Shown here piece after piece: positions 44-24,873 of a stretch of DNA of 64,000 nucleotides. This DNA is from a virus (taxonomy: Duplodnaviria > Caudoviricetes): positions 4,155 to 68,154 of the IMG/VR virus record IMGVR_UViG_3300014204_000183. One strand, written 5' to 3'. Under the pieces are notes generated by a model, which was not told where the DNA came from, did no database searches, and saw only the letters and a list, made by a program, of their open reading frames with translations. The position numbers and the translations under genes are program-made. How positions within the stretch are numbered: position 1 is the first letter of the stretch; each line of letters begins with the position of its first letter.

Positions 44-400
44 TTAAACTGCGCAACCTTCGAGCATCAATACGCGCGAAAAATTGCAAGGATCAGAAAG
101 CAACCCATATCGAAACAACAAACATACCCGCTCCCTAATACATGCTACAATACCGCCCTTACTAACTAGGCGTCGATTTCCGTCAATGGGAGAGGTTAGA
201 AACGCAACCTTACTACCCACTTGAGTGGTAAACTCGGCACAAGTGCCAACAATCTCTCGGCGACCCTCTTCATTGATAACCCCGACTGCAACACAAAAAT
301 CCTTTTCTTCAAGCAATGACCACATAAGGGCGTGTGGGTCTTGACAACAGTCTAGGACTTCTTTGTCTTGAATCAGCATGAAAAACGGTATCGTTGACAT
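44..400 (-). CDS. hypothetical protein (leaderless)
   Basis: 118-aa ORF; ATG lies 6 nt after a TATTCT -10 box. Confidence 0.75.
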   Translation of the reverse strand: MSTIPFFMLIQDKEVLDCCQDPHALMWSLLEEKDFCVAVGVINEEGRREIVGTCAEFTTQVGSKVAFLTSPIDGNRRLVSKGGIVACIRERVCLLFRYGLLSDPCNFSRVLMLEGCAV

Positions 401-434
401 ATAAAAAGAATACCATTTTCTAGTCAGTTGTCAA
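401..434 (-). promoter_or_regulatory. sigma70-type promoter, leaderless
   Basis: TTGACA-N16-TATTCT-N6-ATG(400). Confidence 0.85.
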
Positions 435-617
435 GTTCAATTTGTGAATTATGTGCGGGGTAATTAACCCTGCAATTTCTACAAAATCCCTGTCTGTGAA
501 TGCAGATACTTGTCCGGTCAAATACCACTGTCGATGTTTTGTATCCCACTCAGCTACCACCCATCGGTAATTTTTCACCCAATAGTAGCCACCAGCACGT
601 TGTTTAGGGTCTGTCAT
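420..617 (-). CDS. hypothetical protein
   Basis: 65-aa Trp-rich ORF; start overlaps upstream stop. Confidence 0.7.
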   Translation of the reverse strand: MTDPKQRAGGYYWVKNYRWVVAEWDTKHRQWYLTGQVSAFTDRDFVEIAGLITPHIIHKLNLTTD

Positions 618-799
618 GGTATGTAAATCACTGGATGCCCGTCGTCAAGGCTGTCATGGTTGAGACCACAGATACGCAAGTCAGCGGCAATGCACTCATT
701 TTCGGCCAGACCATACTCGCCACCCTCAACGGTCACATCACAATTTAGTTGATCGTAGGTCATAGTTAGGAGTTCGGCCAATAGTTCTTTGTACTTCAT
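614..799 (-). CDS. hypothetical protein (leaderless)
   Basis: 61-aa ORF directly after promoter. Confidence 0.75.
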   Translation of the reverse strand: MKYKELLAELLTMTYDQLNCDVTVEGGEYGLAENECIAADLRICGLNHDSLDDGHPVIYIP

Positions 800-834
800 A
801 GCTTAATTATACCCCATAGAAAGTAGATTGTCAA
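800..834 (-). promoter_or_regulatory. sigma70-type promoter, leaderless
   Basis: TTGACA-N17-TATAAT-N6-ATG(799); TGA stop of upstream amidoligase lies in the -35 box. Confidence 0.9.
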
Positions 835-1823
835 GCAGAAACTGTTTCTGTAGCAAGATTTCCACGACGGACTCGACCATAATAGCGATTAAGCTCGATA
901 TCGCCGAAAATGGCTTTCAGGCTTTCCCACCGACTAGCGCCCGACCCTCGAAAAGCGTCGTCAATCTCGTCAAACGTCTTATCTTTGGCCCATTCGACAA
1001 ATCGCAAATGTGCCCTAATCCAGTTACAAACCTCCTGTGCGTCAAGTGTTCCTTGATACAAACGAATTTCGTAGCTGCCGAATTTTGAGTAGGCACTCAG
1101 ATTGCAGAGGGAATACCGCTCCCGATCTCGGCAGAAATACGTCATACCTTCCATGTCCGTTATTCGCTCCAGCCGCGTCCGGTCAAAGTCGGCCCGCCGA
1201 CAATAACAACAGTCGTTCGCCCGGAAAGTATTGACAAGCATCCTCCATGCTGAATCGGCTTTTGCGTACGCATAGGCAACAGACTTCAAAACGTCAAGGG
1301 ACTCACCACGCATGTCGATATGAAGATGATAGCCACAATCGCTGTCAGCCTCAAACTCTAGCTGTTCGGCTTCCAATAAAAATTCCTCGATTGCCGCCAG
1401 CCCCTCGTCACCCCTCAAAATAGGGGAGGTGAATTCCATGCCACTGACGGAACAATCGTGTTTAGCCCCAAAGATGGTTTGACCCCGCAGACTACGATAA
1501 TTAGGACATCGAGACGTTTCGAGTTCAATTCCGAAACTCCGCTTGGTGATTGTCCGCTTGTAGGTCTCTGCTGCCGGGGCCACACCGGGGTCCCACATGT
1601 TGTGAAGTGTATAGCACGAAGGGCATACATACACAGTCCGACCATCTTCTGTAAATTGGTACCGATCTCTTCGGTAGTGGACCCCGCCACAATCTGCGCA
1701 GGTAAAACACTCCTCCAAGCACCGGCGACACAGGGAACAATTATCTGGCCCCGCATTACGCGGCCCTGTGTATCTTGCTCCGCACGTTGCGCATCTGTGT
1801 GTAGCTGTTAAAGTTTCTGGCAT
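831..1823 (-). CDS. putative amidoligase (COOH-NH2 ligase type 2) with N-terminal Zn-ribbons
   Basis: FGIELE, EFTSPIL, CGYHLHID, EIR motifs; N-terminal CxxC pairs. Confidence 0.8.
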   Translation of the reverse strand: MPETLTATHRCATCGARYTGPRNAGPDNCSLCRRCLEECFTCADCGGVHYRRDRYQFTEDGRTVYVCPSCYTLHNMWDPGVAPAAETYKRTITKRSFGIELETSRCPNYRSLRGQTIFGAKHDCSVSGMEFTSPILRGDEGLAAIEEFLLEAEQLEFEADSDCGYHLHIDMRGESLDVLKSVAYAYAKADSAWRMLVNTFRANDCCYCRRADFDRTRLERITDMEGMTYFCRDRERYSLCNLSAYSKFGSYEIRLYQGTLDAQEVCNWIRAHLRFVEWAKDKTFDEIDDAFRGSGASRWESLKAIFGDIELNRYYGRVRRGNLATETVSA

Positions 1824-1825
1824 TA

Positions 1826-2707
1826 TTAGTCTACCTTTGCGTGTTCACTTTCGGTACAATAATCCTCCCACGCTGCCCGCCAATCGGCATCAAAATCCTT
1901 GACCGTCGTCGTGGCGGACGTTGTATAATCCTGGGTATCATACCATGTTCCCTTAGCACGTCCTTTATGCCGCTTATATGACCCTTCGTAGTCATTCGTG
2001 TTACTGCAACCATACTTTTTGATCCAGTAATCCGGGGCCGACGAGACAAACTTGTCAAGGTCCGTCTTGACAACCAGACCATTTTCAAGGGTAAACTTGA
2101 TTGTCTGCCCTTCCGTAAGTGTGATGGTTTCATCGGCAATGCCGATGCAACTTTCCAGATGCGACCACGATGAGGAATAGTACCAAATCGTTCCCTTCCG
2201 CCCCAGTGTCAAGTCACCATTGTGGACCTGAACATAGAAGGCGTTATCGTCGAACCATGTCACAGCCCAGTAGCCAGTAATGTCAGCCCACGCCGTGTTA
2301 TAGTCACCACGGGCTTTATGTAAGGCGTCAAACAAGTGCTGCGAATCCACAACATACCCGGTTGGGGCGTCGATCATCCCGTTATGGGAACCGATGATTC
2401 GGCCATAACGGAATGGGTGCGAATTTTGGCGGTTCACTTTGCCTCGGGTGGCAAGGCGAGTATGGCCAGCAATAAACCAGCTAGTGTCCCGGCCCAACTT
2501 TTCAGACCCGTGACAAGAGGCATCCAGCCACTTAGAGATATTTTCTTTCCGTAAAGCATCCGACGGAGTTTCTGCGCATTTAATCATGCGACCAGAAGAA
2601 TCAAAGAAACCGAGAGAATCGGTTCCACGTTCCTGGTTTGCCCACGTCAAAGCACGTAGTGTTCCTTCATCCCAACCTAAACCCACGATTCCAAAAAGGC
2701 CGCAAAT
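1826..2707 (-). CDS. class II glutamine amidotransferase (Ntn), ATT start
   Basis: In-frame ATT-TGC-GGC-CTT-TTT-GGA (CGLFG) upstream of ORF-track start; RGTDSLG, GHTRLAT, NSHPF, HNG motifs. Confidence 0.85.
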   Translation of the reverse strand: MCGLFGIVGLGWDEGTLRALTWANQERGTDSLGFFDSSGRMIKCAETPSDALRKENISKWLDASCHGSEKLGRDTSWFIAGHTRLATRGKVNRQNSHPFRYGRIIGSHNGMIDAPTGYVVDSQHLFDALHKARGDYNTAWADITGYWAVTWFDDNAFYVQVHNGDLTLGRKGTIWYYSSSWSHLESCIGIADETITLTEGQTIKFTLENGLVVKTDLDKFVSSAPDYWIKKYGCSNTNDYEGSYKRHKGRAKGTWYDTQDYTTSATTTVKDFDADWRAAWEDYCTESEHAKVD

Positions 2708-2796
2708 AGAGCTACCCTCACTTACCAGCCTGATTTTTGGATTAAATGCAATCCAGTGAGTTTTGTAGACGACGGCTTTTTATCGCCTCTCACTAT

Positions 2797-2830
2797 ACTA
2801 CAACTATAGCACAAACTTAGAAATAGTCAA
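2797..2830 (-). promoter_or_regulatory. sigma70-type promoter
   Basis: TTGACT-N16-TATAGT, followed after 6 nt by ATA. Confidence 0.75.
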
Positions 2831-2955
2831 ATTATTTTTCAATGCCAGTAAACCAGCCCCAACTGTTACCAGATAGAACGTGGCCTATTGCACGTTCATG
2901 CCCTCCAAGTATTTTGGCAATACTTACCGAGCCAAGCCGCCTCCCACGAACAATT

Positions 2956-4203
2956 TTAGAACGGGGGTTCCAAAATAGCTAGTTCGGTTGGTCTGACACT
3001 GGACCCATATACATCGGAACGGTCAGCATATTTAGTAGCAAGCTCCTCGCCGACAATTTCGCTCAATGCTGCAAACTGAGATTCTACACTACCGCTAAAT
3101 TTGTCGTCAATCTCGTCAAGAGACATACAACTGACATAGTCAATAAACCTTGTATGTAGCATTACCCAATCACAAATCATATCCTTGTCAAGTGTAGCAT
3201 CGTGGGATCGCACCTCAAAACTGCCATGGACCAGATAAGCCCGCCAATTGACAAACTCGAATCGGTCCCGGGCCCCGACAAAATACTCCCAGTCGGACGC
3301 ACTATTAACCCGTCGCACGTCCTCGGGGGAATAATTAGGCGGACCCGCATAGGCATTGTGCGCCCTACTCTCAGATACTAAGCGACACCACATATCATAC
3401 ATTTTTCGATACGCATAGGCAATGCTACGCATGGCTTCCCATGTTTCTTTTGACATATCAAAATGAGCATGATAACCACAATAATGATTAACGTGCCAGC
3501 GGCGTCTATGGGCGTTGCCACAAAAATTCTCGATCTCAATCAAGCCTTCATCCCCATATAGAATGGGTGAAATAAACTCTCGGCCCTCAATTGAGCAGTC
3601 AGTATGGCATCCCCAGATGGTGTTCCCATACAATTCACGGTAACCATTGCATCGAGAGGTTTCGAGTTCGACTCCAAATTTTCGTTTGGACATAATCCGC
3701 TCGAAACTGGGTTCGATAATAAAATCTGTCGCGTCCCATTCATCGTATGTACGATCACACTCCGAGCATAATAGACCATGTTCAGTCGGATTAAGATCGG
3801 ATTGCCAGTGGGTACCCCCACAATTGGCACACGTCGAACAATTCACGTAAAAGCATTGGCGGCATAAAATTGACCCGTCTGGGTCAGTAAGGGTGTCATT
3901 TCGTTGGGTAGTAGTTCCACAATCTGTACAGCGTGCGCAAAGCAGACTGAAGCAACTGGGGCATATTCCGTGGTTGCCAAATATTCTACGATCTTCTATC
4001 AGGCCTCCAAGCCCGCAAGCAGCACAGAAAAAATGGTCCTCAAGATAGCAAGCATGATGGTAGTTTCGACCCGCTACCCGGATAGCGGCATCTTGCTCTA
4101 CAGTTTCGTGACAGTGAGAGCATTCCACGTATGCCAGTGGCTTGCATTCCGGGCAATATTTACCCTCGCAATCACACCCGCACATCTGGCATACGTCAGG
4201 CAT
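2956..4203 (-). CDS. putative amidoligase paralogue with ~7 N-terminal CxxC Zn-finger repeats
   Basis: FGVELE, EFISPIL, CGYHAHFD, FEVRSH motifs; ATG at 4203. Confidence 0.8.
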   Translation of the reverse strand: MPDVCQMCGCDCEGKYCPECKPLAYVECSHCHETVEQDAAIRVAGRNYHHACYLEDHFFCAACGLGGLIEDRRIFGNHGICPSCFSLLCARCTDCGTTTQRNDTLTDPDGSILCRQCFYVNCSTCANCGGTHWQSDLNPTEHGLLCSECDRTYDEWDATDFIIEPSFERIMSKRKFGVELETSRCNGYRELYGNTIWGCHTDCSIEGREFISPILYGDEGLIEIENFCGNAHRRRWHVNHYCGYHAHFDMSKETWEAMRSIAYAYRKMYDMWCRLVSESRAHNAYAGPPNYSPEDVRRVNSASDWEYFVGARDRFEFVNWRAYLVHGSFEVRSHDATLDKDMICDWVMLHTRFIDYVSCMSLDEIDDKFSGSVESQFAALSEIVGEELATKYADRSDVYGSSVRPTELAILEPPF

Positions 4204-4363
4204 GGTCGTCACCTTCTAGCCGAGTGTCAATGATAAGAGTTCCACCCGACATGTATGCCCCAGTCGCCTCGAATCCAATGATTTTTGATTGAGTGTACAA
4301 ATTGACAAATACCTTGCCAGCGGCAATCAATTTTTTCAACTGGTCGAGTTCGTGTGTTGACAT
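4196..4363 (-). CDS. hypothetical protein, 55 aa (leaderless; not in ORF track)
   Basis: MSTHELDQLKKLIAAGK...GDDHA*; ATG 6 nt after -10. Confidence 0.7.
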   Translation of the reverse strand: MSTHELDQLKKLIAAGKVFVNLYTQSKIIGFEATGAYMSGGTLIIDTRLEGDDHA

Positions 4364-4397
4364 ACTACTAGCCTACCACATGTGTGACTAAAGTCAA
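4364..4397 (-). promoter_or_regulatory. sigma70-type promoter, leaderless
   Basis: TTGACT-N16-TAGGCT-N6-ATG(4363). Confidence 0.75.
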
Positions 4398-4427
4398 ATA
4401 AAAAGCCGGGCGACTAGACACCAAAAA

Positions 4428-4760
4428 TTAGCAATTGTCAAGTAATTTTAATGCAGCAAAATACGTGACCCCGTTAAATTGCCGGCCCCGAATAACGTAA
4501 CTGGCCCACCTTAAACCAACACAGTCAATGCAGTCATAGCAATTAATACAGTCGAGACAGTTACGGCAATGGTCACTATTCTTACATCGGCAGCAGCCCC
4601 GGCAAGAGACGCATCTAATACAACTCGCGCAGCTATGACAATCAGCACATGCCTCGCACGTTTGGCAATCACGACAATTAAAACAGGCTTTGTTGGTGCT
4701 ATCGGATTGTGTCGCCACAATCTCTTGATCGGTCATAGCCATTATTTCGTCAAGTGTCAT
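4428..4760 (-). CDS. Cys-rich (CxxCxxC)n repeat protein
   Basis: 110 aa from MTLDEIMAM; Cys every third residue; paralogue of next gene. Confidence 0.8.
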   Translation of the reverse strand: MTLDEIMAMTDQEIVATQSDSTNKACFNCRDCQTCEACADCHSCASCIRCVSCRGCCRCKNSDHCRNCLDCINCYDCIDCVGLRWASYVIRGRQFNGVTYFAALKLLDNC

Positions 4761-4791
4761 TTTAAGCCCTAATTCAAGTGTACACCAAAAC

Positions 4792-5124
4792 TTAGCAACT
4801 GTCAAGTAATTGCACGGCCACCCTATATGCGGCATTAGTAAGCTGCCGCCCACGAATTACACAAGTGGCCCCTATTAGTCCATTGCAATCAATACAATCA
4901 TAGCATTTGATACAATCTAGGCAACTCTGACAGCGATTGCAACTTTTACATTGATAGCAACCCCGACAAGCTATACAATTAATACATTGAATACAACCAG
5001 TACAGTCGGTACAATGGCTACAATTTTGACACTCGCTGCAACCAAAACAGGCGGTATTATTGTGTGTAATCGGGGTGGCCACGATCTCTTGATCGGTCAT
5101 AGCCATTAGTTCATCTATGGTCAT
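4792..5124 (-). CDS. Cys-rich (CxxCxxC)n repeat protein
   Basis: 110 aa; colinear with 4428-4760 product. Confidence 0.8.
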   Translation of the reverse strand: MTIDELMAMTDQEIVATPITHNNTACFGCSECQNCSHCTDCTGCIQCINCIACRGCYQCKSCNRCQSCLDCIKCYDCIDCNGLIGATCVIRGRQLTNAAYRVAVQLLDSC

Positions 5125-5126
5125 AA

Positions 5127-5387
5127 TTATGTTGGCATCTCAAGGCGTGGGCTAGACATTACCTTTATCTCGCCAAGGTGGCAACTAAAACAGGTGATCT
5201 CAATCCGTTGCATATCGGGGTCATACATATGCCGGGTAGCATATGCCTGTGCTGCTTCCAGATTTTGAAATATGACATGCTGCGTATGAGTAGCATAGAT
5301 ACGTGTAACCGTGAAATCAAAAAATTCACCCACTGACGGACCCCACAAATATTGTTTTTGCCGATGTGACCAAATTATACCTGCCAA
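5127..5387 (-). CDS. hypothetical protein
   Basis: 86-aa ORF in tight minus-strand run. Confidence 0.6.
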   Translation of the reverse strand: MAGIIWSHRQKQYLWGPSVGEFFDFTVTRIYATHTQHVIFQNLEAAQAYATRHMYDPDMQRIEITCFSCHLGEIKVMSSPRLEMPT

Positions 5388-5664
5388 AAAGATGATTATA
5401 AAAAAGATGCCCCCTAACTACCGGTATAATACGGTCGTGCGTAGGTATGGCAATTATTTCCTTACTATATGGGTCAGTTAGTCTATAACTCGATCCGCAC
5501 GGCCACTGAATAGAAGCAATTCGTTTCTTCGCGGAGTCCCAAACGCCATTTACTACCCACGACTGGCAATGCTTCAAACGGTCAAATCGCAAATCCATGG
5601 GCCGCGCTGCCGAGCTAACAATGATCTCCTTGCCAGAATTGATAGTAGCTAATTCAAATTGCAT
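5326..5664 (-). CDS. hypothetical protein
   Basis: 112-aa ORF, purine-rich leader. Confidence 0.6.
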   Translation of the reverse strand: MQFELATINSGKEIIVSSAARPMDLRFDRLKHCQSWVVNGVWDSAKKRIASIQWPCGSSYRLTDPYSKEIIAIPTHDRIIPVVRGHLFYNHLFGRYNLVTSAKTIFVGSVSG

Positions 5665-5845
5665 TTGTTTCCCCGATATCTTCTGCCATTGATCGGATTG
5701 CGGCTTTCATCCTGCCTAAACAATCAGCCATCTTGACTAATCCCGCTAAACGTGCATCATCTTCGGCTTCCCACAAATCACACGCAACAATCCGTAAATC
5801 TTGCAGGGTGGTGCGAATGTGCTGGCTGCTACAGACAATGGCCAT
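5654..5845 (-). CDS. hypothetical protein
   Basis: 63-aa helical ORF. Confidence 0.6.
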   Translation of the reverse strand: MAIVCSSQHIRTTLQDLRIVACDLWEAEDDARLAGLVKMADCLGRMKAAIRSMAEDIGETNAI

Positions 5846-6017
5846 TGATACACCTATCTATTTCGTCACGTTGTTTCGCAATGTCTTGGTCGATGGCAGC
5901 TATTAGCCGTACCACTCGATTACGGTGATCTGTGTGGGCCAGCCGCGCCATCTTCTCTGCCACTGGCAGAAATTCACACTCTGTTGTCAGAATCTTAAAT
6001 CTTGTCGTCAGATCCAT
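5829..6017 (-). CDS. hypothetical coiled-coil protein
   Basis: Likely start MDLTTRF at 6017. Confidence 0.55.
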   Translation of the reverse strand: MDLTTRFKILTTECEFLPVAEKMARLAHTDHRNRVVRLIAAIDQDIAKQRDEIDRCINGHCL

Positions 6018-6150
6018 TGTGATAGCTCGAAAAAAAGCACATTTCCCAAAAATCCGTATCGGGCGGCGCAGGTTTATCAATGATCTTGATAAACTGCCAG
6101 ACCCAAACACAGAACCAAATACCAACTAAGAGCAATAATAATCCGACCAT
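5995..6150 (-). CDS. small membrane protein
   Basis: MVGLLLLLVGIWFCVWVW hydrophobic N-terminus. Confidence 0.5.
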   Translation of the reverse strand: MVGLLLLLVGIWFCVWVWQFIKIIDKPAPPDTDFWEMCFFSSYHNGSDDKI

Positions 6151-6539
6151 CGGTACCCCTCTGGTAAATCCAGCCCTCGCCACCAAACATTAAATACCCA
6201 GTTTATAACTTTGAAATGCAAACTTGATTCTGAAATTCGGCTGCGCCGCCCCCTTGTTACAACACCATTAGCCGGATTTAGTGGCCCAACGTACTTTCGA
6301 TGATTGTCTATGAACACGTAGATTTTATAGGGTCTGCCACTCAGGCGTTGAATAGAGTAAATGAACCTATCCCCTTGTGGATTCCATACAGAGAAGCGCC
6401 TAAGATCGGTAAGAATCTGGTTACGTGTTGGCGGCATATTCGACCCCATGGGCGACGGTTTATTACTCCCCACTATGTCGGTAGTATCTCCGTGGGTTTC
6501 AGTGGTTTCATAAGGGAGTGGTCGGGACTGTCTGGCCAA
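6126..6539 (-). CDS. hypothetical protein
   Basis: 137-aa ORF downstream of promoter 6567-6594. Confidence 0.6.
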   Translation of the reverse strand: MARQSRPLPYETTETHGDTTDIVGSNKPSPMGSNMPPTRNQILTDLRRFSVWNPQGDRFIYSIQRLSGRPYKIYVFIDNHRKYVGPLNPANGVVTRGRRSRISESSLHFKVINWVFNVWWRGLDLPEGYRWSDYYCS

Positions 6540-6558
6540 TACCGAAACTCGACTAGGA

Positions 6559-6624
6559 CTAATTTAAGAATACCATAGTTTGGCTGATTGTCAAATAATT
6601 TCGTGGCCAAAACTTCACTTTCAT
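6559..6624 (-). CDS. putative 21-aa leaderless peptide
   Basis: MKVKFWPRNYLTISQTMVFLN*; ATG 6 nt after TAAGAT. Confidence 0.4.
   Translation of the reverse strand: MKVKFWPRNYLTISQTMVFLN
6567..6594 (-). promoter_or_regulatory. sigma70-type promoter
   Basis: TTGACA-N16-TATTCT. Confidence 0.75.
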
Positions 6625-6658
6625 ACTACAATCTTACACTCCAAATTCAAAAAGTCAA
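6625..6658 (-). promoter_or_regulatory. sigma70-type promoter, leaderless
   Basis: TTGACT-N16-TAAGAT-N6-ATG(6624). Confidence 0.75.
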
Positions 6659-6727
6659 ATCTATTATATACGCGCACGCACGCGTAAGACCCCGACAATC
6701 ATTATAACTAATTCTTTTGAGCATGAT

Positions 6728-6755
6728 TTGCTATTTCACCGTCGTGTGGTATATT
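6728..6755 (+). promoter_or_regulatory. divergent plus-strand promoter candidate
   Basis: TTGCTA-N16-TATATT-N6-GTG. Confidence 0.5.
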
Positions 6756-8495: not shown

Positions 8496-8729
8496 GTAAG
8501 TTCCTTCAGGAAGTTTCTGTCGAAGCTGGTGTGTTCGTTCTGTACCGTATGCTCCGTCTAGCTCCAACCAATCAATCACATCCCAAAATGAGGGGTGTGT
8601 ACCCATTCTACTAATGTCTTGATTCACAGAAATTAGAGACACTTCTGGCTTTTGACGGTCTGGACGCAGAGTAAACATTAAATACCCTGCATTTTTCATT
8701 CCGACTATTAGTTTAGGAAGGATACTCAT
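8481..8729 (-). CDS. hypothetical protein (leaderless)
   Basis: Start MSILPKL 7 nt after -10. Confidence 0.7.
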   Translation of the reverse strand: MSILPKLIVGMKNAGYLMFTLRPDRQKPEVSLISVNQDISRMGTHPSFWDVIDWLELDGAYGTERTHQLRQKLPEGTYLTFI

Positions 8730-8764
8730 ACTACCAATCATACCATAAGTTTCGAGAAAGTCAA
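8727..8764 (-). repeat. 38-bp direct repeat copy 1 = promoter TTGACT-N16-TATGAT-N7-ATG
   Basis: Identical to 9001-9038. Confidence 0.9.
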
Positions 8765-9003
8765 TCCCACTCACGGACTTTATACCCCTCGAATAGAAGC
8801 CAATTTCGTTGTTCGGCTGTCAACTTAAACCCGACGTGTCTAATGGTGTGTTTATCGTATACTCTGGCATATCCAAGCCGTTCGGCAATTGGTGTGTCTA
8901 TACCAAAGTGAGTATACAAATATTCATCATGGCCACAGGATGGGCAAGTATGCCACTCGCCATTTGGAAGGAGCCAGCCTGAGTCCCATTTATCGGAGTC
9001 CAT
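8761..9003 (-). CDS. hypothetical protein (leaderless) between promoter repeats
   Basis: MDSDKWDSGWLLPNGEWHTCPSCGH; stop TGA lies in the next -35. Confidence 0.7.
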   Translation of the reverse strand: MDSDKWDSGWLLPNGEWHTCPSCGHDEYLYTHFGIDTPIAERLGYARVYDKHTIRHVGFKLTAEQRNWLLFEGYKVREWD

Positions 9004-11114: not shown

Positions 11115-11308
11115 AGTCTCCCATTGAATTCAAAAATTGTGCTAGTGCCCTGGTCTATATGGATTCTATTTGTTCGCGTCCATCGAAAATATCCATCCCC
11201 AACATATAGGTCGATTGCTTCCAATGGGGCCAATAACACAATTGAATCGACCCTCCCATTTTCCGGGGCTGGCCCACCTTCAAAATACACTGGCTCGTTG
11301 TACTCCAT
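11111..11308 (-). CDS. hypothetical protein (leaderless)
   Basis: Start MEYNEPVYFEGGPAP 6 nt after TATAAT. Confidence 0.7.
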   Translation of the reverse strand: MEYNEPVYFEGGPAPENGRVDSIVLLAPLEAIDLYVGDGYFRWTRTNRIHIDQGTSTIFEFNGRL

Positions 11309-15163: not shown

Positions 15164-15177
15164 AAACTTCTCCTTAG

Positions 15178-15250
<73 letters not shown>

Positions 15251-15733: not shown

Positions 15734-16092
15734 TTGACATTAATGCCCCAGGTAGTTCTAATCGCTTCAAGTGCGGCTTCTGTACCACTCACATTGATTG
15801 TTTTAATCAATCTGTCAACTATATAGGATCGGACGCTTGCCGTGAAAATCGATTTCTGGCATATTTCAGCCCCGGGGCCCCCCTTAAATTTAATCAACAC
15901 CTGTTCCATAGGCTGCTTGGCCCAGTCCGGTTCTCTACAAACAATACCTAAGCTGGTAATACCCTTGTGACCGACAAGAATGATACGATCCTTATAACCC
16001 AAATCTTCGGCCAAAAGATAGGCGTCGTCCAGTGTCTTTCCACTGGCCAGTGACTCGAAAACTGTTATAAGGTGCTTGGTTTCTGTCGCCAT
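15715..16092 (-). CDS. FxGGP-family protein (dispersed copy, leaderless)
   Basis: IKFKGGP...VRSYIVDRL; similar to 21576-21947 product. Confidence 0.7.
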   Translation of the reverse strand: MATETKHLITVFESLASGKTLDDAYLLAEDLGYKDRIILVGHKGITSLGIVCREPDWAKQPMEQVLIKFKGGPGAEICQKSIFTASVRSYIVDRLIKTINVSGTEAALEAIRTTWGINVKCSGLA

Positions 16093-17029: not shown

Positions 17030-17839
17030 TCAATAGTTTAGGATTAAAAGTTCGGTTACTCGCTGCTTTGTGCTATTTGTAGTCCCACAATTAGTGTGAT
17101 CTCTCTCGATAATGCGAAAGTCTTTATATAAATCTCTAATCAGTGGATGCTTATCGTAGCTTAAACAAACTCTATGCTTACAATTTTTTACCCGCTCTGC
17201 TAGTAGCACGTGATCGTCGATGGTAAAGTTATGCTGGTATAGTTGCGATGATGGTGTTAGATTCGTATTGACAACATACGGCGGATCTATATAGATCCAA
17301 ACCTTGTTTCCAGGAGCCACCAACAAGTGATTGTAATCTCGGCATGTGATCTTAACTCGTTTTAAACACCCTGCGGCATCTTCCAATTTTGTTGTCTTAA
17401 TGATATTCCAGCCATCTGGATGACTGTAGTAAAGTCGTGACGGAATATTATAATTTACTCGACCCGCAAAGACCGTACGATTAAGAAAAAAGTATCTTAA
17501 AGCTGGGTCCATCTCTTCATTGTGTTTGAATCGATCAAAAATACGCCCAAGTCGAGCATTGTATCTACCACTAAGTAGCTCGCCAGAGCAGGCAGGTTTT
17601 ATTTGCTTACACGATTCAATAAACCCGTCATTGCGCTTTAGCGCCCTATACACGGCGATTAAGTCGGGGTGAATATCATTTATCCACCTAGTAAGTTGAG
17701 TGTCCACTGAAAAGAATACCCCACCCCCGCCGACAAATGGTTCGCGGTACTCAAGTGTATCAGCCGGCATCTGAGCAAGTATCCAATTACGAATACCGGC
17801 TTTTGACTTTCCGCCAGGGTAGCGAAAGATATTAGGCAT
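17030..17839 (-). CDS. dam: DNA adenine methyltransferase (Dam/D12 class)
   Basis: FRYPGGKS, EPFVGGGGV, YIDPPY. Confidence 0.9.
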   Translation of the reverse strand: MPNIFRYPGGKSKAGIRNWILAQMPADTLEYREPFVGGGGVFFSVDTQLTRWINDIHPDLIAVYRALKRNDGFIESCKQIKPACSGELLSGRYNARLGRIFDRFKHNEEMDPALRYFFLNRTVFAGRVNYNIPSRLYYSHPDGWNIIKTTKLEDAAGCLKRVKITCRDYNHLLVAPGNKVWIYIDPPYVVNTNLTPSSQLYQHNFTIDDHVLLAERVKNCKHRVCLSYDKHPLIRDLYKDFRIIERDHTNCGTTNSTKQRVTELLILNY

Positions 17840-17845
17840 AGCCTG

Positions 17846-18013
17846 TCAGTCAATATCCCAAGGGTCTAGCTTCTTATCAACAGCGTCTTCAGGCTTACGT
17901 TTAGCTTGGCGCCTATTACGTCGATGTACCAAAGTTTTATACCACTTCTTTAAGGCCGGAGCGTCCAACCATCGCATTGTTCGCTGCCAGCCGGTCGTGT
18001 AGGATTTGCTCAA
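17846..18013 (-). CDS. basic hypothetical protein, 55 aa (not in ORF track)
   Basis: AAGGAG-N6-TTG; ...HRRNRRQAKRKPED... Confidence 0.55.
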   Translation of the reverse strand: MSKSYTTGWQRTMRWLDAPALKKWYKTLVHRRNRRQAKRKPEDAVDKKLDPWDID

Positions 18014-18023
18014 GGTATGCTCC

Positions 18024-18560: not shown

Positions 18561-18570
18561 TATATTCTTC

Positions 18571-18810
18571 CTAGTGCTTAAAAATTATCCGTCCAATAAT
18601 CTTGTTATCAACATACACTACTTCGACTATGCGCCCAATGTTTCGGATCGGCCACCGTAAGGCACGTTTAACTACTTCTACCAACCGCTCAGTTTTAGCC
18701 CCTAGATTCCCACTTCGGATGTCTGCAATAACTTGTGCCCGCAGAGGCGGGGCTTGATAAATGCCGCGAAATACGTCATTCTTAATTGTATTAACCATTA
18801 CTTCATACAT
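18571..18810 (-). CDS. hypothetical protein
   Basis: 79-aa ORF. Confidence 0.55.
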   Translation of the reverse strand: MYEVMVNTIKNDVFRGIYQAPPLRAQVIADIRSGNLGAKTERLVEVVKRALRWPIRNIGRIVEVVYVDNKIIGRIIFKH

Positions 18811-18991
18811 CTTTTGTTCCTTTTAAATACTTGTTAAGTGCCCCAGTGGCTAGCAGCGTTGCCAGTGCTTTACCAGTCATAAACGAGCAATAGGTCAAAC
18901 CACAGATATATCCCACCGCTACAATCGGCAGTATAAAACAAACCACACACAAAGCAACACTCTTTCTAAGAATAAATCGAAATACTTTCAT
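18803..18991 (-). CDS. small membrane protein
   Basis: Start MKVFRF; hydrophobic segment. Confidence 0.55.
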   Translation of the reverse strand: MKVFRFILRKSVALCVVCFILPIVAVGYICGLTYCSFMTGKALATLLATGALNKYLKGTKDV

Positions 18992-18992
18992 G

Positions 18993-19319
18993 TTACACCT
19001 TGTTAATTTCCTCGTCTGACCAACAGAACTTACATAGTAATTCACCATCGTGGCCATAGACAAGCAACGCCAAAAAGAAGACCGGCCCACCACTCCATGG
19101 GTCAGCTTGTAAACAATCATCTGCCCATCCACCGTCCTTTAAATGGTGCCGAACTAATTGGTACTCAGTGCCAAACATGCCTGTATAAGTACCAATTACT
19201 TCCGTTTTAAACGGGCGCATATAGTTACAATGTGGGCATAGTGTAGGCTCCTTTACATTTTCATTCAAAAACAAAACTGCATCATCAGGGAGCCCGGCAA
19301 ATTGATCTTGTCTACTCAT
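18993..19319 (-). CDS. hypothetical protein
   Basis: 108-aa ORF with CPHC. Confidence 0.6.
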   Translation of the reverse strand: MSRQDQFAGLPDDAVLFLNENVKEPTLCPHCNYMRPFKTEVIGTYTGMFGTEYQLVRHHLKDGGWADDCLQADPWSGGPVFFLALLVYGHDGELLCKFCWSDEEINKV

Positions 19320-19333
19320 TTAATTAACCTCAT

Positions 19334-20020
19334 TTAATTAACCCCATTAAAATACAACTCCCGTGTCGAGAACCGTCGAAATCGCTGCAACCATTGCCGA
19401 ATCACTGCATCGTCCAAGTGAGTCGAGGCGCTCCAGCCAATCGGCAGGCTTATTAGCTCTTCGATAAACTCTGCCGTTGGAAGTCCACCTAGTTGCTCGG
19501 CAAGGCGTTGACAAACGACACTCAAGTTGTTCGTGACCGTCGTTTGTGGTGCCGGGGGCTGCCACTTCGGCACAGACAAAGATTCTAGTCCGTCTATAGT
19601 CAGCCCCCATATCACCCGCCCGCACTTTGAAAATGCTCGGGCTGTAGCCAAGAATTTCAAGCCCGTTGGCGAGATAATCCGCACTTGTGATTGCTTCTTT
19701 CTTAGCCGAATGTGAGAACTGCCAGAGGATATAGCTCGGCTCCACTGTTTGCACAAGTTGAATGAGTTTGTCTGTAAAATTTGTAGTGGGCTCCTTTGAA
19801 GTGGCTGTGGCTTCTGTGATTCCAGCGATGCAATCCACGCATCGACGCCAAGGTCTCCCGTCGAAGGTGTAGAAGTTGTCCCAGATAGGAGCCGCTTGTA
19901 GGGACTCCTCTCTGAATCGGTAATCAAGTATTTTAATGCTTCGGGGATTAGCTTCCACATAACATACCGGGGTCCAAAAATGAAGTTTTTGTAATGGGAG
20001 ATCGAAACTGCCGATGCCAC
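19334..20020 (-). CDS. overlapping alternative-frame polypeptide carrying C5-MTase motif IX-like segment (beta-type subunit)
   Basis: 228 open codons inside the MTase gene; GGLPTAEFIEELISLPIGWS...RQWLQ; true start uncertain. Confidence 0.55.
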   Translation of the reverse strand: MASAVSISHYKNFIFGPRYVMWKLIPEALKYLITDSERSPYKRLLSGTTSTPSTGDLGVDAWIASLESQKPQPLQRSPLQILQTNSFNLCKQWSRAISSGSSHIRLRKKQSQVRIISPTGLKFLATARAFSKCGRVIWGLTIDGLESLSVPKWQPPAPQTTVTNNLSVVCQRLAEQLGGLPTAEFIEELISLPIGWSASTHLDDAVIRQWLQRFRRFSTRELYFNGVN

Positions 20021-20048
20021 TATTAATTGATAAATATCTATACATCAA
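19347..20048 (-). CDS. DNA cytosine-C5 methyltransferase homologue, catalytic PC and ENV motifs absent
   Basis: SINSGIGSFD motif I, YVEAN, GADYRRTRIF, RLDSLG motif X; GITEA replaces GFPCQ. Confidence 0.75.
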   Translation of the reverse strand: MMYRYLSINSGIGSFDLPLQKLHFWTPVCYVEANPRSIKILDYRFREESLQAAPIWDNFYTFDGRPWRRCVDCIAGITEATATSKEPTTNFTDKLIQLVQTVEPSYILWQFSHSAKKEAITSADYLANGLEILGYSPSIFKVRAGDMGADYRRTRIFVCAEVAAPGTTNDGHEQLECRLSTPCRATRWTSNGRVYRRANKPADWLERLDSLGRCSDSAMVAAISTVLDTGVVF

Positions 20049-20209
20049 ACAAACTCGACCCCTTCTTGGGGTGGATTCGATTTGTAAAGTAGCTTCTGGT
20101 TGGTGATTTTCTGCAACCGTTTGTTTAATTTTTTCAACTTACGATCATTTCTATCTCGGTGATCGTTCTTGCAGTGATAGTCGGTGTCGTGTCTGAATGT
20201 TCGTCCCAT
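20045..20209 (-). CDS. basic hypothetical protein, 54 aa (not in ORF track)
   Basis: MGRTFRHDTD...GVEFV*. Confidence 0.5.
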   Translation of the reverse strand: MGRTFRHDTDYHCKNDHRDRNDRKLKKLNKRLQKITNQKLLYKSNPPQEGVEFV

Positions 20210-20551
20210 TTAAGAACTCTTAACTGCAACTTTCGTGCCATAGATGCGTTTGCGGCGTTCTTCAGTGGCATCATAGTGCATTACATAATCGAGAATCATT
20301 GTTAAAAGAGACCCCTTAATCCAGTTATACTGTCCAGGGGGTCCGCCACAGAATTGTATTGGTCCAATTGTGGCCGCGGGGATATCTTGTGGTATCTCGA
20401 AACAATATTTAAACGGTGTTGTGACCTTAGAGCCAGCGACACCATCTATAATAATCTGGTCTGCAAGAGCACCCATTTCCGATAGGATGTCAACAGCCTC
20501 GCTCGCTGTCAGATTCGCAAACTCGCGTTGGTATTCTTCTAATGATTTCAC
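20210..20551 (-). CDS. FxGGPP-family protein
   Basis: IQFCGGPPGQYNWIKGSLLTMILDYV. Confidence 0.8.
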   Translation of the reverse strand: MKSLEEYQREFANLTASEAVDILSEMGALADQIIIDGVAGSKVTTPFKYCFEIPQDIPAATIGPIQFCGGPPGQYNWIKGSLLTMILDYVMHYDATEERRKRIYGTKVAVKSS

Positions 20552-21195
20552 GGGTACGCCTTTAACGCCTTATGAACCTTGGGCAGATCATTTTTTACAT
20601 ACGCATAGAGAAAGTGATCGATTAACATTGTCAACAATGTTCCATCCCACCACTTAGGGGCTGGCGGGCCACCATAGAATTGAACCGGCACGTCACCGGC
20701 CAAATCATTAAAAAGACTCGTATCATCATACAGATCAACAAGTTGGAGGCGTTGACCACCGAATCCTATGTATGCCTTGTCAGCCCCGAAGGTCCAACAT
20801 AGTAATTCCAGTGCATCGAGTGTCGATATTTGACCAAATCGTTTGCGAAGCATACTAAAGTTAATTTGTTTCATATCCCCCTCTACCAAGTCTGTGTATG
20901 CACCTAGAATTGCCCAGTCATAGAGTATCACGTCACATAGGTATGTTAAAAGTGATCCCGTGTGCAGTCCTCGGTTATCAGGTGGACCGCCTATAAATTC
21001 AATAGGCCCCACTGCCGACGCTGCCACCCCTTCCATATAACTGGCACCTAAGAAAGTTTGTACTTCTCGCCTACTTTGAGTGTTTACAAAACAGATGCAA
21101 CTATGTCCAAGTCCAAATTCCTGGCAAAGTAGTTCAACTGCCTCGCTGGCACTTACCTCTTCAAGTTCGTTAAGGACATGCGTGTAAATCGCCAT
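20548..21195 (-). CDS. FxGGPP-family protein, two tandem domains (leaderless)
   Basis: FIGGPP..GSLLTYLCD and FYGGPP..GTLLTMLID. Confidence 0.8.
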   Translation of the reverse strand: MAIYTHVLNELEEVSASEAVELLCQEFGLGHSCICFVNTQSRREVQTFLGASYMEGVAASAVGPIEFIGGPPDNRGLHTGSLLTYLCDVILYDWAILGAYTDLVEGDMKQINFSMLRKRFGQISTLDALELLCWTFGADKAYIGFGGQRLQLVDLYDDTSLFNDLAGDVPVQFYGGPPAPKWWDGTLLTMLIDHFLYAYVKNDLPKVHKALKAYP

Positions 21196-21229
21196 ATCTT
21201 AAATATACCACGTTTTCCCTAATTGTCAA
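21196..21229 (-). promoter_or_regulatory. sigma70-type promoter, leaderless
   Basis: TTGACA-N16-TATATT-N6-ATG(21195); upstream stop TGA in -35. Confidence 0.9.
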
Positions 21230-21570
21230 CCGATCCAACCCATTGACAACCCATCTGGTAGTTGTTGTGGTAGTAGAAATTTATTTACTACGTCTAAATT
21301 GCCGTTATAATGGGCTGTAAGAATTCTATCGATTAGCATGGTTAATAGGGTTCCAGTGAATGTTGTGTATTTCATAGGTGGCCCACCATAAAATCGGCAC
21401 GGCACTGACTTTGCCTTGGCTAATCCGAAAGACGTGCTATGTAATTCCCATACTGCAAAAGGCGAGCTACCTTTATACGATGGGATATGTATTAGATCCT
21501 TGTGTGCATTTAATGCCTTCATACTTTGTACAAATTGTATCACCGTATGGTCAGCCAGCGCCGAGTACAA
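21226..21570 (-). CDS. FxGGPP-family protein
   Basis: CRFYGGPPMKYTTFTGTLLTMLIDRI. Confidence 0.8.
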   Translation of the reverse strand: MYSALADHTVIQFVQSMKALNAHKDLIHIPSYKGSSPFAVWELHSTSFGLAKAKSVPCRFYGGPPMKYTTFTGTLLTMLIDRILTAHYNGNLDVVNKFLLPQQLPDGLSMGWIG

Positions 21571-21575
21571 GATGT

Positions 21576-21947
21576 CTAGAATGGTGGTGCAGCTAGTTGT
21601 CGTTGTTGGTTCAATAATTGACGCACCTTTTCAAAGCCTTCCATCTGAATTTTAGCAGAAACACAGTCAACAATAAAGCTATACACGGTGCCATCATACC
21701 ATTTACCGCGTCCCACAGGGCCCCCATAGAAGCGAATACGCACACGATTAGCCGGTCTCCCAGTGGCTGTGCCCGCGTAAATCTGTCGGATATTTGTAAC
21801 GGCAATTGAATAGGCCTCGCCGCCTATCAAAAAGACATCCGTATCTTGATGCCCAAGTGCATAGGCAATTAGGTAAGCACAGTCGAGGTCAACAGGTGCA
21901 AAATGCCCCAGCAACGACTCGGCCTGTCTTAGATGATTCTTTTTCAT
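21576..21947 (-). CDS. FxGGP-family protein
   Basis: IRFYGGPVGRGKWYDGTVYSFIVDCV. Confidence 0.8.
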   Translation of the reverse strand: MKKNHLRQAESLLGHFAPVDLDCAYLIAYALGHQDTDVFLIGGEAYSIAVTNIRQIYAGTATGRPANRVRIRFYGGPVGRGKWYDGTVYSFIVDCVSAKIQMEGFEKVRQLLNQQRQLAAPPF

Positions 21948-22300
21948 ACGTTAAGACTCATAAACCGTCCAAGTACCGCTATATTTCCGAAGGACACGGC
22001 CTGCATAATTCGATCAACAAGCATAGTAAGAAGGCTGCCCTCATACCATTTTCGGTACCCAGGAGGTCCGCCCCAAAAGGTTATTGGTGCAAGGTCACTA
22101 GCTCTCAACATCTGAGCCCCTGGCAAGCTATTAATCAGTGCGACTGGGGTAGTGCAGAGCCCGTTCACCTCGATCTCTGTCAGACCTTCATCAAAGCTAT
22201 AGTTGAGGTAGTTCACAACCCGTGTTGCTGATAATTCTTTGAGTTTTTCTTTCAATTGATTACAAAGAATCTCGTCATTTGCCACCATTTTTATCACCAT
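21944..22300 (-). CDS. FxGGPP-family protein
   Basis: ITFWGGPPGYRKWYEGSLLTMLVDRI; start 22300 or 22288. Confidence 0.8.
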   Translation of the reverse strand: MVIKMVANDEILCNQLKEKLKELSATRVVNYLNYSFDEGLTEIEVNGLCTTPVALINSLPGAQMLRASDLAPITFWGGPPGYRKWYEGSLLTMLVDRIMQAVSFGNIAVLGRFMSLNV

Positions 22301-22641
22301 TGAAACCGCCTCTGGGACTTCTGGGGCGTCACAGCCATCAATTGATAAAGATCGCTCAGTGTATGGGAGCACAAGTACTCGTAGATTCTGTCCAGTACTA
22401 ATGTTACTAGGTTCCCTTCGTAGTATGCTAATCTGGTCGGTGGCCCTCCCCAAAACATGAAGTGAGGGGTCTCGACTGCTAGCAACCATTGCACATCTGT
22501 GTTCACCCAGTCTTTGACTCTTAATATCTGTTGATTTAAGTAGATTGTCGTGTCCGACTGGCCCAGAACCGCTAATAAGCTGTAGGCTGCTGGAGCACTC
22601 AATGTGTTTAGCAGCGCCAAAAGATCGTCTGGTATTCTCAT
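22294..22641 (-). CDS. FxGGPP-family protein
   Basis: FMFWGGPPTRLAYYEGNLVTLVLDRI. Confidence 0.8.
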   Translation of the reverse strand: MRIPDDLLALLNTLSAPAAYSLLAVLGQSDTTIYLNQQILRVKDWVNTDVQWLLAVETPHFMFWGGPPTRLAYYEGNLVTLVLDRIYEYLCSHTLSDLYQLMAVTPQKSQRRFQW

Positions 22642-22677
22642 ACATTATAAGTATACACTATTAAATACTACTGTCAA
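22642..22677 (-). promoter_or_regulatory. sigma70-type promoter, near-leaderless
   Basis: TTGACA-N16-TATACT-N8-ATG(22641). Confidence 0.85.
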
Positions 22678-23050
22678 GTCCTTGTAGTTCTTCAATCATT
22701 GTTACCCGTAATGAGTTCTGCTCGGGAGTAATTGGCCTCCACTCAGCAGAGGGGTCGTTTCGTAGTTTAAATAGATTACAGGATAGCCACCGATTACAGA
22801 ATGCGGCCAGATCGGTTGGCTGTACAGCTAATCCATCTGGCACCCATCGTTCAAGATTGACTAGCTCGCAGTGTCGTAAGAAACGTAGCTTATCCTCAGC
22901 AATCCACTTGCGATATTTCTCCTGGTCAGAGTTCTTTAGCACATCAGAAATAAGATCAACTAGGCGATGGGCTATTTCGCTTCTAGCTGGCTCTGCTACT
23001 AGGTCACGTAGCCCTTTGATGAAATCAACTAAGAGATTTAGGTTAAGCAT
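22661..23050 (-). CDS. hypothetical protein
   Basis: 129-aa ORF. Confidence 0.6.
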   Translation of the reverse strand: MLNLNLLVDFIKGLRDLVAEPARSEIAHRLVDLISDVLKNSDQEKYRKWIAEDKLRFLRHCELVNLERWVPDGLAVQPTDLAAFCNRWLSCNLFKLRNDPSAEWRPITPEQNSLRVTMIEELQGLDSSI

Positions 23051-23934
23051 GCGACATCTCCTGGGTATTTAATATGGGCCGACGGCTCTTGTGTCCAATT
23101 ATACTTCCTATAAATATTAGGATATTCGACATTGTTGCCGACGATTGTTAATAGAAATTGAATATCAGGCATGGTCCATTTTGATCGTGTAGGCAAGCCG
23201 CGGTCTCTACAAAATTCACGCCACCGACCATTGGATAGTGGCCCATTATGCAGTATTTTCATAGCCAACCGCCGCTCTTCTCGGAGCAAGAGATATTGCT
23301 GATGAGACTCTTGGATGATTGGTGAATACACCCAATCGGGCTTTGGAAAGACACCTGGGGTATAGAGTTCTCGTAGTACTTGTAACGAGGAGTCTGAGAT
23401 TCCACGATTCTTGCATTCAATAGCTACTGCAATTCCATAGCGAACTAACGACTGGATGTGCCCTCTCCACATCTCGACCGGTCTCGGTCGATAATTAGGA
23501 CTTGATTCAAAATACTTCAGCGTTCGCAAGATCCGGTTACGAGTGTGTTTTAAATCACAGTCTGTAAAACATTGTGCGCAAGCGCGGTAAGAACTGAATG
23601 GCATCCATACTAAATATTTAGGCTTTTGTCGCCGTGTAGGCGCGGGGTTCCAGTCAACCTCGGTGTACTCAATGGCGGCTGTGGGATTTGTCCAAACATT
23701 AGCTGCGATGCCATACGCCTGTCGCATATGCTGGCCAAACCGTTCATATTCGGCAGCACTTGCTTCCGCCTGTAATAACTGGGTCATTCGACTGTCAAGA
23801 GTAACGTAGTCTAGTTCATTTATATCTTCAAAAGTAATCTCCTTCCCAGTGCCACAGTCTATTAGTCGAACACCAACGCCACCAATGGCCCACTCACAGC
23901 GATATTGACGGATATCAAAATGTTCGTAAGCCAA
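23038..23934 (-). CDS. pyrimidine-dimer glycosylase/endonuclease V-like domain (MSMEG_6728 type) with N-terminal extension
   Basis: PVEMWRGHIQSLVRYGIAV..ECKNRG..PDWV..ESHQQYLL. Confidence 0.65.
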   Translation of the reverse strand: MAYEHFDIRQYRCEWAIGGVGVRLIDCGTGKEITFEDINELDYVTLDSRMTQLLQAEASAAEYERFGQHMRQAYGIAANVWTNPTAAIEYTEVDWNPAPTRRQKPKYLVWMPFSSYRACAQCFTDCDLKHTRNRILRTLKYFESSPNYRPRPVEMWRGHIQSLVRYGIAVAIECKNRGISDSSLQVLRELYTPGVFPKPDWVYSPIIQESHQQYLLLREERRLAMKILHNGPLSNGRWREFCRDRGLPTRSKWTMPDIQFLLTIVGNNVEYPNIYRKYNWTQEPSAHIKYPGDVACLT

Positions 23935-24015
23935 GCCAGGAGCCGTTAGCTGTCGAACAAAAACTGACTGATCCTGGGGACTCTATACTGTCGGATTTCA
24001 CTAGGCCGATACTGT

Positions 24016-24312
24016 CTAGGCATTGAGTTTTACCTTACTTAACAATGGATATTTACTGTCACGTGGATAGGAGCGCATAGCATTGTGCTCAGAGCCATGG
24101 CGCTCGCGCCAGACAATAGTGAAGTTGGCTCGATCTTTACTCCGTAGTACCTCGATTGTAACGACACCATCTTCATCAATGTCTTCAGTCTCGACAAATA
24201 CTTCGCCGTCTAGCATCTCTAGAACAGTGAATAGTTTTGTCATACCAAGCAATCTGGTGCTTAATTTTTTGACATTCTCTGGATGCCCAGCCATATAATC
24301 TTGTAGTCGCAT
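24016..24312 (-). CDS. hypothetical protein
   Basis: 98-aa ORF. Confidence 0.6.
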   Translation of the reverse strand: MRLQDYMAGHPENVKKLSTRLLGMTKLFTVLEMLDGEVFVETEDIDEDGVVTIEVLRSKDRANFTIVWRERHGSEHNAMRSYPRDSKYPLLSKVKLNA

Positions 24313-24839
24313 TAAATTAAATCCCTAGTTCGGATTGGCACAGCACAATTTGCAAAGTGTTGTCTACTTGCTGCCTGATAATAAGGATTCAAACGCACGC
24401 TCTCTGGCATAGTTACCTCCTGGCAGTTAGGTGACGTGACTGGCAGGTCACTTTCCGGGCAGCCAACAACCTTAGCACCATGTTGGCAGAGAAGATCGCT
24501 TGCCCATCGCTCATTAACTGTATGCGTTTTACCACAGGCGCACTGGCCGTGTAATACAGTGCAGTCTGTGTGCTGACGTGGTTTCAACCAGTACCGCGGG
24601 ATGGCAATGATACCGGAGTCATCGGGGGCAAGCGTCAGAGTCTCTATCGTGGCATCATGGGCAGCGAGGAGATCATTAACCCATTCGTCCTGTTCTTGAT
24701 GAACACCTCCACAGGCGCAGGGCCCGACAAGCATATCACATTTAGTGCGGAAGCGAGCGGTTCCATCAATGGTCCGCTTTGCGAATTCTTTTGGATACTT
24801 TACAAAGCCACTGGATTGCCGTCGTTTTAGCGTCTTCAT
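24312..24839 (-). CDS. protein with duplicated C-x6-CACG-x2-H domain (leaderless)
   Basis: CDMLVGPCACGGVH..W..DLL and CTVLHGQCACGKTH..W..DLL. Confidence 0.7.
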   Translation of the reverse strand: MKTLKRRQSSGFVKYPKEFAKRTIDGTARFRTKCDMLVGPCACGGVHQEQDEWVNDLLAAHDATIETLTLAPDDSGIIAIPRYWLKPRQHTDCTVLHGQCACGKTHTVNERWASDLLCQHGAKVVGCPESDLPVTSPNCQEVTMPESVRLNPYYQAASRQHFANCAVPIRTRDLI

Positions 24840-24873
24840 ACTATAACTATAGCATGCTTTCGCTCGATGTCAA
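24840..24873 (-). promoter_or_regulatory. sigma70-type promoter, leaderless
   Basis: TTGACA-N16-TATAGT-N6-ATG(24839). Confidence 0.9.

Follow-up and report, generated by a model that had tools for sequence, protein, structure and literature searches.

Host-type promoters with predicted leaderless first cistrons in the putative early region of an uncultured phage

The window analysed here, a stretch of 64,000 nucleotides, covers bases 4155-68154 of the 68,154-bp IMG/VR virus record IMGVR_UViG_3300014204_000183 (G+C ~45%). Its left 25 kb carries a class of minus-strand promoters of the form TTGACW-N16-TAnnnT, most of which are followed within a few nucleotides by an ATG. Judged by their make-up, these sites are host-type sigma70/sigmaA promoters, and we consider it likely that they serve as early promoters whose first cistrons are leaderless. 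From the DNA sequence we infer where the RNAs begin, how they are translated and that they are 'early'.

A promoter class that abuts start codons

The pattern TTGACW-N16-TAnnnT matches the window 19 times, against 1.64 expected (maximum 6 across 100 shuffles); 15 of the 19 matches are minus-strand sites within 434-24873. Of these, fourteen are listed in an earlier note on this DNA, which had described a stereotyped promoter grammar here; the fifteenth, at 17853, was absent from that list, and the listed site at 834 has an N17, not an N16, spacer. The coordinates and counts of the note are all correct: an ATG stands 6-8 nt past the -10 box at 13 of its 15 sites, with a gap of exactly 6 nt at ten (434, 834, 4397, 6658, 8495, 11342, 12137, 16126, 21229 and 24873), 7 nt at 8764 and 9038, and 8 nt at 22677, while 2830 and 6594 have no such ATG. 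The motif together with an ATG exactly 6 nt past the -10 box occurs 9 times, against 0.04 expected from the shuffle control. Spacers in the early block measure 16 bp at 14 sites and 17 bp at 2, all within the range of 15-19 bp.

We compared the window phage with G001, a 105-kb relative located via its DNA polymerase. A position weight matrix (PWM) trained on the G001 sites alone finds the 14 N16 sites of the window and none in 25-64 kb, at a background of 0.4 matches per shuffled strand, so that comparison with shuffled sequence upholds the grammar in this form also. The match at 17853 escapes this PWM and overlaps the start of the Dam methylase gene, and is therefore probably due to chance. 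The statement of the earlier note that no such promoter lies right of 24.9 kb on this strand holds for the N16 class; it does not extend to other spacers, as perfect TTGACA-N17-TATAAT sites stand at 39413 and 47217 and an N18 site at 29073. The sites are as follows, all on the minus strand (-).

24837..24873 (-): N16 promoter, ATG after 6 nt; open reading frame (ORF) 24839-24312, 175 amino acids (aa); G001 orthologue at 47537, protein conserved from Met1
22639..22677 (-): N16 promoter, ATG after 8 nt; ORF 22641-22294, 115 aa
21193..21229 (-): N16 promoter, ATG after 6 nt; ORF 21195-20548, 215 aa; compared with G001
17826..17853 (-): probable chance match, overlapping the Dam methylase start codon
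16090..16126 (-): N16 promoter, ATG after 6 nt; ORF 16092-15715, 125 aa
12101..12137 (-): N16 promoter, ATG after 6 nt; small ORF 12103-11945, 52 aa
11306..11342 (-): N16 promoter with perfect TTGACA/TATAAT, ATG after 6 nt; ORF 11308-11111, 65 aa
9001..9038 (-): N16 promoter, ATG after 7 nt; ORF 9003-8761, 80 aa; same sequence as the 8764 promoter
8727..8764 (-): N16 promoter, ATG after 7 nt; ORF 8729-8481, 82 aa
8459..8495 (-): N16 promoter, ATG after 6 nt; ORF 8461-8294, 55 aa
6622..6658 (-): N16 promoter, ATG after 6 nt; 21-codon frame reaching into the next promoter, a doubtful gene
6567..6594 (-): N16 promoter with leader, not abutted by an ATG; TTG 6539 opens the next long frame
4777..4805 (-): additional N17 promoter, absent from the earlier list; short leader, ATG 4760, 110 aa
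4361..4397 (-): N16 promoter, ATG after 6 nt; ORF 4363-4196, 55 aa
2803..2830 (-): N16 promoter with leader, upstream of the GATase-amidoligase genes; leader (..AGTGAGRGGCGATAAAAAGCC..) kept in G001 at 84734
797..834 (-): N17 promoter with perfect hexamers, ATG after 6 nt; ORF 799-614, 61 aa
398..434 (-): N16 promoter, ATG after 6 nt; ORF 400-44, 118 aa; compared with G001
39385..39413 (-): perfect TTGACA-N17-TATAAT right behind the DNA polymerase gene; not leaderless, outside the early block
47189..47217 (-): perfect TTGACA-N17-TATAAT within the GT41-like glycosyltransferase gene

A logo built from 47 sites of the window phage and G001 yields a fuller consensus, AC-TTGACA-N16 ending TRTGg-TAtraT-T.aa.T-ATG. 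In the -35 region TTGAC is invariant by search design; the A and C upstream of it, which were not part of the search pattern, are present in 30/47 and 32/47 sites. The -10 box, TAnnnT, has T at its third position in 34/47 sites and A or G at its fourth, and an extended -10 element, TRTG, stands before the base that precedes it (T in 30/47, R in 44/47, T in 28/47 and G in 33/47). The middle of the spacer is A-rich, a T follows the -10 box, and the stretch before the ATG reads approximately T.aa.T; this discriminator is AT/AG-rich, and the bases surrounding the predicted start, T-A-T, agree with the 'YRY start element' that PMC12641261 describes. Across the 49 bacterial species of that study, transcription start sites (TSSs) centre 7 bp past the -10 box, the spacer is usually 17 bp, one base above the 16 bp found here, and the TRTG extended -10 is common in Firmicutes. 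Given the 6-nt gap and a TSS at the seventh base after the -10 box, the predicted +1 is therefore the A of the ATG.

The design is conserved where the intervening sequence is not. In G001, whose polymerase is 83% identical and whose genome shows synteny with 65-75% nucleotide identity, the forward strand bears 31 N16 sites versus 2 in the control; 12 of the 31 have an ATG at exactly 6 nt, and some others have GGAGG in a short leader. Seven orthologous promoter pairs are 98% identical in the -35 box, 41% in the spacer and 44-46% in the flanks, and this drift of the spacer while the boxes are kept argues for selection on the boxes. Alignment of the orthologous proteins begins at the Met that the abutting ATG encodes, and most of the differences are synonymous. 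Two orthologous pairs, for example 16126 and its orthologue (G001 58985), have changed the length of the N-terminus and left the 6-nt gap unchanged; at 22677 both the 8-nt gap and the protein N-terminus are kept (G001 50061). The full grammar occurs 12 times in G001, 13 times in G019 (175 kb, complete), and 4, 3, 2 and 1 times in G018, G025, G016 and G017, respectively; the controls gave zero.

Two of the listed sites deserve separate mention. The leader of the 2830 promoter (window 2721-2802, minus strand; ..AGTGAGRGGCGATAAAAAGCCGTCG..) is conserved in G001 at ~84762-84800 and, on its sequence, may be a regulatory RNA element. The 47217 site, followed by ACAATAGT, recurs as a perfect or near-perfect TTGAC-N17-TATAAT in four phages (the window; G001, 23515; G002, 23795; L143, which is C307, 34473) and may be an internal promoter for the downstream RNA ligase genes.

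Predicted initiation on leaderless first cistrons

We envision that the host housekeeping RNA polymerase, of the sigma70/sigmaA type, would read these early promoters and start transcription on the seventh base after the -10 box. At 12-13 of the 15 sites, +1 would be the A of the ATG or lie 1-2 nt before it, leaving a 5' untranslated region of 0-2 nt. The first cistron would then be a leaderless mRNA, with the ribosome binding the 5'-terminal AUG together with initiator tRNA, and later cistrons would use ordinary AGGAG-type Shine-Dalgarno (SD) sites or coupling.

The start codons themselves bear on this reading. Twelve of the 15 sites abut ORFs of 52-215 aa, and the ATGs concerned are the first usable starts; no SD sequence precedes the abutting starts, because a 6-nt gap leaves no space for one. 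Across the window phage and G001, promoter-abutting starts comprise 30 ATG, no TTG and no relevant GTG, and among internal early genes GTG or TTG starts are frequent (crude gene calls). Since leaderless initiation requires ATG, the ATG-only starts support the leaderless reading. Over their first 36 nt the predicted mRNAs fold at -2.8 kcal/mol, against -5.4 kcal/mol in internal windows of the same genes (p ~1e-5). As the earlier note had proposed, the rule also fixes gene starts, which are placed at 16092 and not 16110, at 11308 and not 11323, and at 9003 and not 9015. Its phrase 'leaderless early transcriptome' suits the promoter-proximal cistrons, as a prediction, and is otherwise overstated: of the ~53 crude genes in 1-25 kb, 10-13 would be leaderless first cistrons, and at least 25 carry an SD core of at least 4 nt (AGGAG, GGAGG, GAGGT) at the usual distance.

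Several points weigh against the leaderless reading. Genes in general, and not leaderless ones in particular, show weak structure near the start codon; the ATG at 6658, one of the 13, opens 21 codons only; and a +1 shifted by a few bases would yield truncated or short-leader mRNAs. Furthermore, the early block of C307, a 63-kb relative of closer GC, opens with four promoters, of which three are N17 and none, for lack of an abutting ATG, is leaderless; the grammar thus does not extend to every member of the clade.

Leaderless messages that begin at a promoter-proximal AUG have precedents. The lambda cI mRNA from PRM starts on its AUG, a single regulatory gene and not a promoter class. A recent preprint (bioRxiv 10.64898/2026.04.20.719267, citing phiYS40 work) describes leaderless transcripts in the Thermus phages phiYS40 and Lalka27a. 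The Thermus phages likewise rely on host RNA polymerase and on -10/-35 or extended -10 promoters, and most of their transcripts begin on the A or G of the initiator codon; unlike here, where 5' ends are predicted, theirs were mapped, and their host phylum is rich in leaderless genes. The window phage differs in that leaderless messages are predicted for first cistrons only, and with ATG only. It is not kin to the Thermus phages, whose DNA polymerases are 23-25% identical to its own.

In bacteria, leaderless genes carry TANNNT ~12 bp upstream of the start codon (Zheng et al. 2011, PMC3160421), and the window sites resemble them in that the -10 box doubles as the sole signal before the start codon. 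The leaderless share in that survey is 39% in Deinococcus-Thermus, 19% in Actinobacteria, 13% in Acidobacteria and 4% in Firmicutes; ~13% leaderless mRNAs are reported for one Firmicute, Lactococcus cremoris (PMC10986495). Whereas the trait is genome-wide in some phyla of PMC3160421, here it concerns one promoter class of one phage clade, with a strong -35 box in addition.

Copying, host preference and start-site placement

The geometry could be mainly inherited, copies of a single promoter-plus-ATG cassette having spread and recombined across the early region, in the manner of the promoter-early stem-loop (PeSL) cassettes of the T4-type phages RB49 and phi1 (Arbiol et al. 2010, PMC2839356). 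We regard this as possible, though rather unlikely. It is compatible with leaderless initiation; the regularity of the sites would then reflect copying as much as per-site selection. In its favour, the 8764 and 9038 promoters are identical over 28 nt and beyond (-35, spacer, -10, discriminator and ATG); homology blocks between the window phage and G001 start at promoters, with indels just upstream (24873/47537, 16126/58985, 2830/84734); and the least syntenic stretch (~8-14 kb) is dense in promoters in both genomes. However, apart from the 8764/9038 pair, spacers and flanks differ among sites, and orthologous promoters have kept the boxes through the spacer divergence given above. Neither does a stem-loop accompany the promoters (mean z -0.17 over the 47 sites; 2/47 below -2; folds -40 to +34), and terminator-like sites are not enriched (18 vs 16.6 expected). 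The promoters may nevertheless double as module boundaries. The identical promoters at 8764 and 9038 flank one 80-aa gene.

PeSLs and the window sites share many near-consensus sigma70 early promoters before small genes whose function is unknown, located in a variable region, with upstream stop codons close to the promoter. PeSLs, in contrast, have a stem-loop terminator and end in an SD sequence plus start codon, and the window promoters have no stem-loop and no SD sequence, their ATG standing 6 nt past the -10 box. We therefore rejected an identity with PeSLs.

The earlier note had offered a different account, in which a spacer of 16 bp suits the host polymerase best and the leaderless early genes help the phage to withstand, or take advantage of, a shut-off of SD-led translation. 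Its merits depend in part on the host. A DNA polymerase alignment contains 17 loci from metagenome-assembled genomes (MAGs), 13 of them Planctomycetota and several within megabase contigs, with three polymerase copies in one 4.2-Mb Thermoguttaceae chromosome; IMG/VR classes several viral relatives as proviruses. The family defined by this polymerase thus appears to include temperate phages of Planctomycetota, a phylum for which very few phages are known. In a tree of the polymerase, the window belongs to a nine-member low-GC clade (38-46%) that is sister to a 49-member clade holding all Planctomycetota loci, and a single member of the low-GC clade bears a label, a 63-kb phage contig assigned to the bin of an Anaerolinea MAG, which is weak host evidence. 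A 20-kb BLAST against 401 Planctomycetota genomes gave no match resembling clustered regularly interspaced short palindromic repeats (CRISPR); a lone 32-nt match lay in a repeat-free contig. The DNA polymerase, searched as a single protein, had no match in species genomes, and a protein atlas returned 'viruses' alone. The loci of family members within Planctomycetota MAGs are L049, L050, L055 (one Thermoguttaceae chromosome), L059, L053, L051 and L047.

Spacers were counted in candidate-host genomes on forward and reverse strands; control counts follow in brackets. Prophage promoters may contribute to these figures, which are crude.

Anaerolinea MAG: N16 80 (79); N17 130 (50); N18 69 (46)
Planctomycetota G006: N16 58 (12); N17 116 (20); N18 47 (22)
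Planctomycetota G010: N16 48 (13); N17 74 (19); N18 23 (21)
Planctomycetota G014: N16 110 (50); N17 117 (48); N18 54 (49)
Planctomycetota G005: N16 34 (17); N17 64 (19); N18 23 (21)
Planctomycetota G007: N16 84 (43); N17 45 (53); N18 56 (44)
Planctomycetota G009: N16 38 (13); N17 29 (20)

Across seven Planctomycetota MAGs, the six listed and G008, N16 and N17 are enriched and N18 is not (no N18 excess in any of the seven); N17 equals or exceeds N16 in five, and N16 exceeds N17 in two (G007 and G009, which have an N16 excess and no N17 excess). The Anaerolinea MAG is enriched at N17 only. Phages of the group favour N16 over N17 much more strongly than any candidate-host genome counted (G001, 34 vs 13; G019, 54 vs 17; G025, 21 vs 1). 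These mixed counts neither establish nor exclude a 16-bp preference of the host.

We consider the account by host preference and shut-off improbable. The N16 preference of the window phage and its relatives, the two MAGs with N16 excess and the initiator-like tRNA that the phage encodes speak for it; against it stand the five Planctomycetota MAGs and the Anaerolinea MAG in which N17 prevails or equals N16, and the perfect N17 promoters in the same genome. Resistance to shut-off in particular is weakened, because a block on SD-led translation would hit most early genes, the SD cores of at least 25 of ~53 lying within the same operons. Pfam and PHROG scans of ~40 proteins found no translation-shut-off gene, sigma factor or RNA polymerase.

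A candidate host counterpart was also considered and rejected. Four Planctomycetota MAGs of different families (L137, L138, L139) share a promoter, TTGACW-N16-TATCGT-ACATTGATG, conserved nearly base for base and with an ATG at 6 nt; since it drives csrA through a leader, it is not evidence for leaderless use by a host gene.

Alternatively, the promoters may be real and +1 fall a few bases off the ATG, giving short leaders or downstream starts and another route of translation. TSS choice does vary by 1-2 nt among promoters, and the gaps at 8764, 9038 and 22677 are 7 or 8 nt. Yet the gap is exactly 6 nt at 10/15 sites here and 12/31 in G001, protein conservation begins at the abutting Met, and ATG alone is found at that position; we give this offset very little credence. 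That the pattern is a chance or compositional artefact is next to inconceivable, since the shuffles already refute it, strand and region bias and conservation among relatives speak against it, and a single probable chance match, 17853, is all that it can claim.

Phage context and implications

Nearly all window genes lie on the minus strand. The 25-57 kb region holds replication and nucleotide metabolism genes (family A DNA polymerase, helicase, ligases, exonuclease, glycosyltransferases), and 0-25 kb holds small genes, the majority with no family match, together with a Dam methylase, an HD hydrolase, a trypsin-like protease, a nucleotidase and an amidoligase-GATase cluster. Searches among cultured phages, at both the nucleotide and the protein level, returned no close kin; the polymerase is ~25% identical to those of the best database phages.

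Both the window phage and G001 encode translation-related RNAs. The tRNA-Met gene at window 54919-54994 (minus strand) is initiator-like, with a GGAGCAG D-arm and an unpaired A1xC72; its anticodon stem has one G-C pair (plus a G-U) adjoining the loop, where a canonical initiator has three. The G001 copy retains A1xC72, shows compensatory stem changes and has two G-C pairs. A second gene, at 15177-15250 (minus strand), was called Met(CAT); because its syntenic G001 counterpart (L037:432-505, beside tRNA-Asn) has the anticodon TAT (Ile), it is probably not a Met tRNA, and is instead a putative AUA-reading tRNA-Ile2 needing lysidine. G001 further carries nine tRNA genes, a transfer-messenger RNA gene (L038:2158-2506; tag AKPSFAMAA) and a 534-aa Ro60-like RNA-binding protein (L037:11602-13203; phrog_850). 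Downstream of its promoter at 71343 lies non-coding-looking sequence, possibly a Y-RNA-like partner of this protein.

Leaderless phage transcripts and the geometry of a -10 box beside an ATG are known; what is new here is one more phage clade with such a design. We speculate, with little confidence, that the fixed design (16-bp spacer, TRTG, +1 on the AUG) ties translation of the first gene to its own promoter, because read-through transcripts would offer no ribosome site, and that the initiator-like tRNA of the phage aids 70S initiation on 5'-AUGs during takeover. The strict 16-bp spacer may track the preference of the host polymerase or serve another end, such as precise start sites or promoter escape. 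Should the 5' ends be confirmed, the rule would give exact gene starts and operon boundaries across a clade of uncultured phages of 130-175 kb, and would bring to light small early ORFs that escape gene callers or are given wrong starts by them. If true, the leaderless reading would mean that heavy reliance on leaderless first cistrons, known from few phages, those of Thermus, has a mesophilic, environmental example as well.

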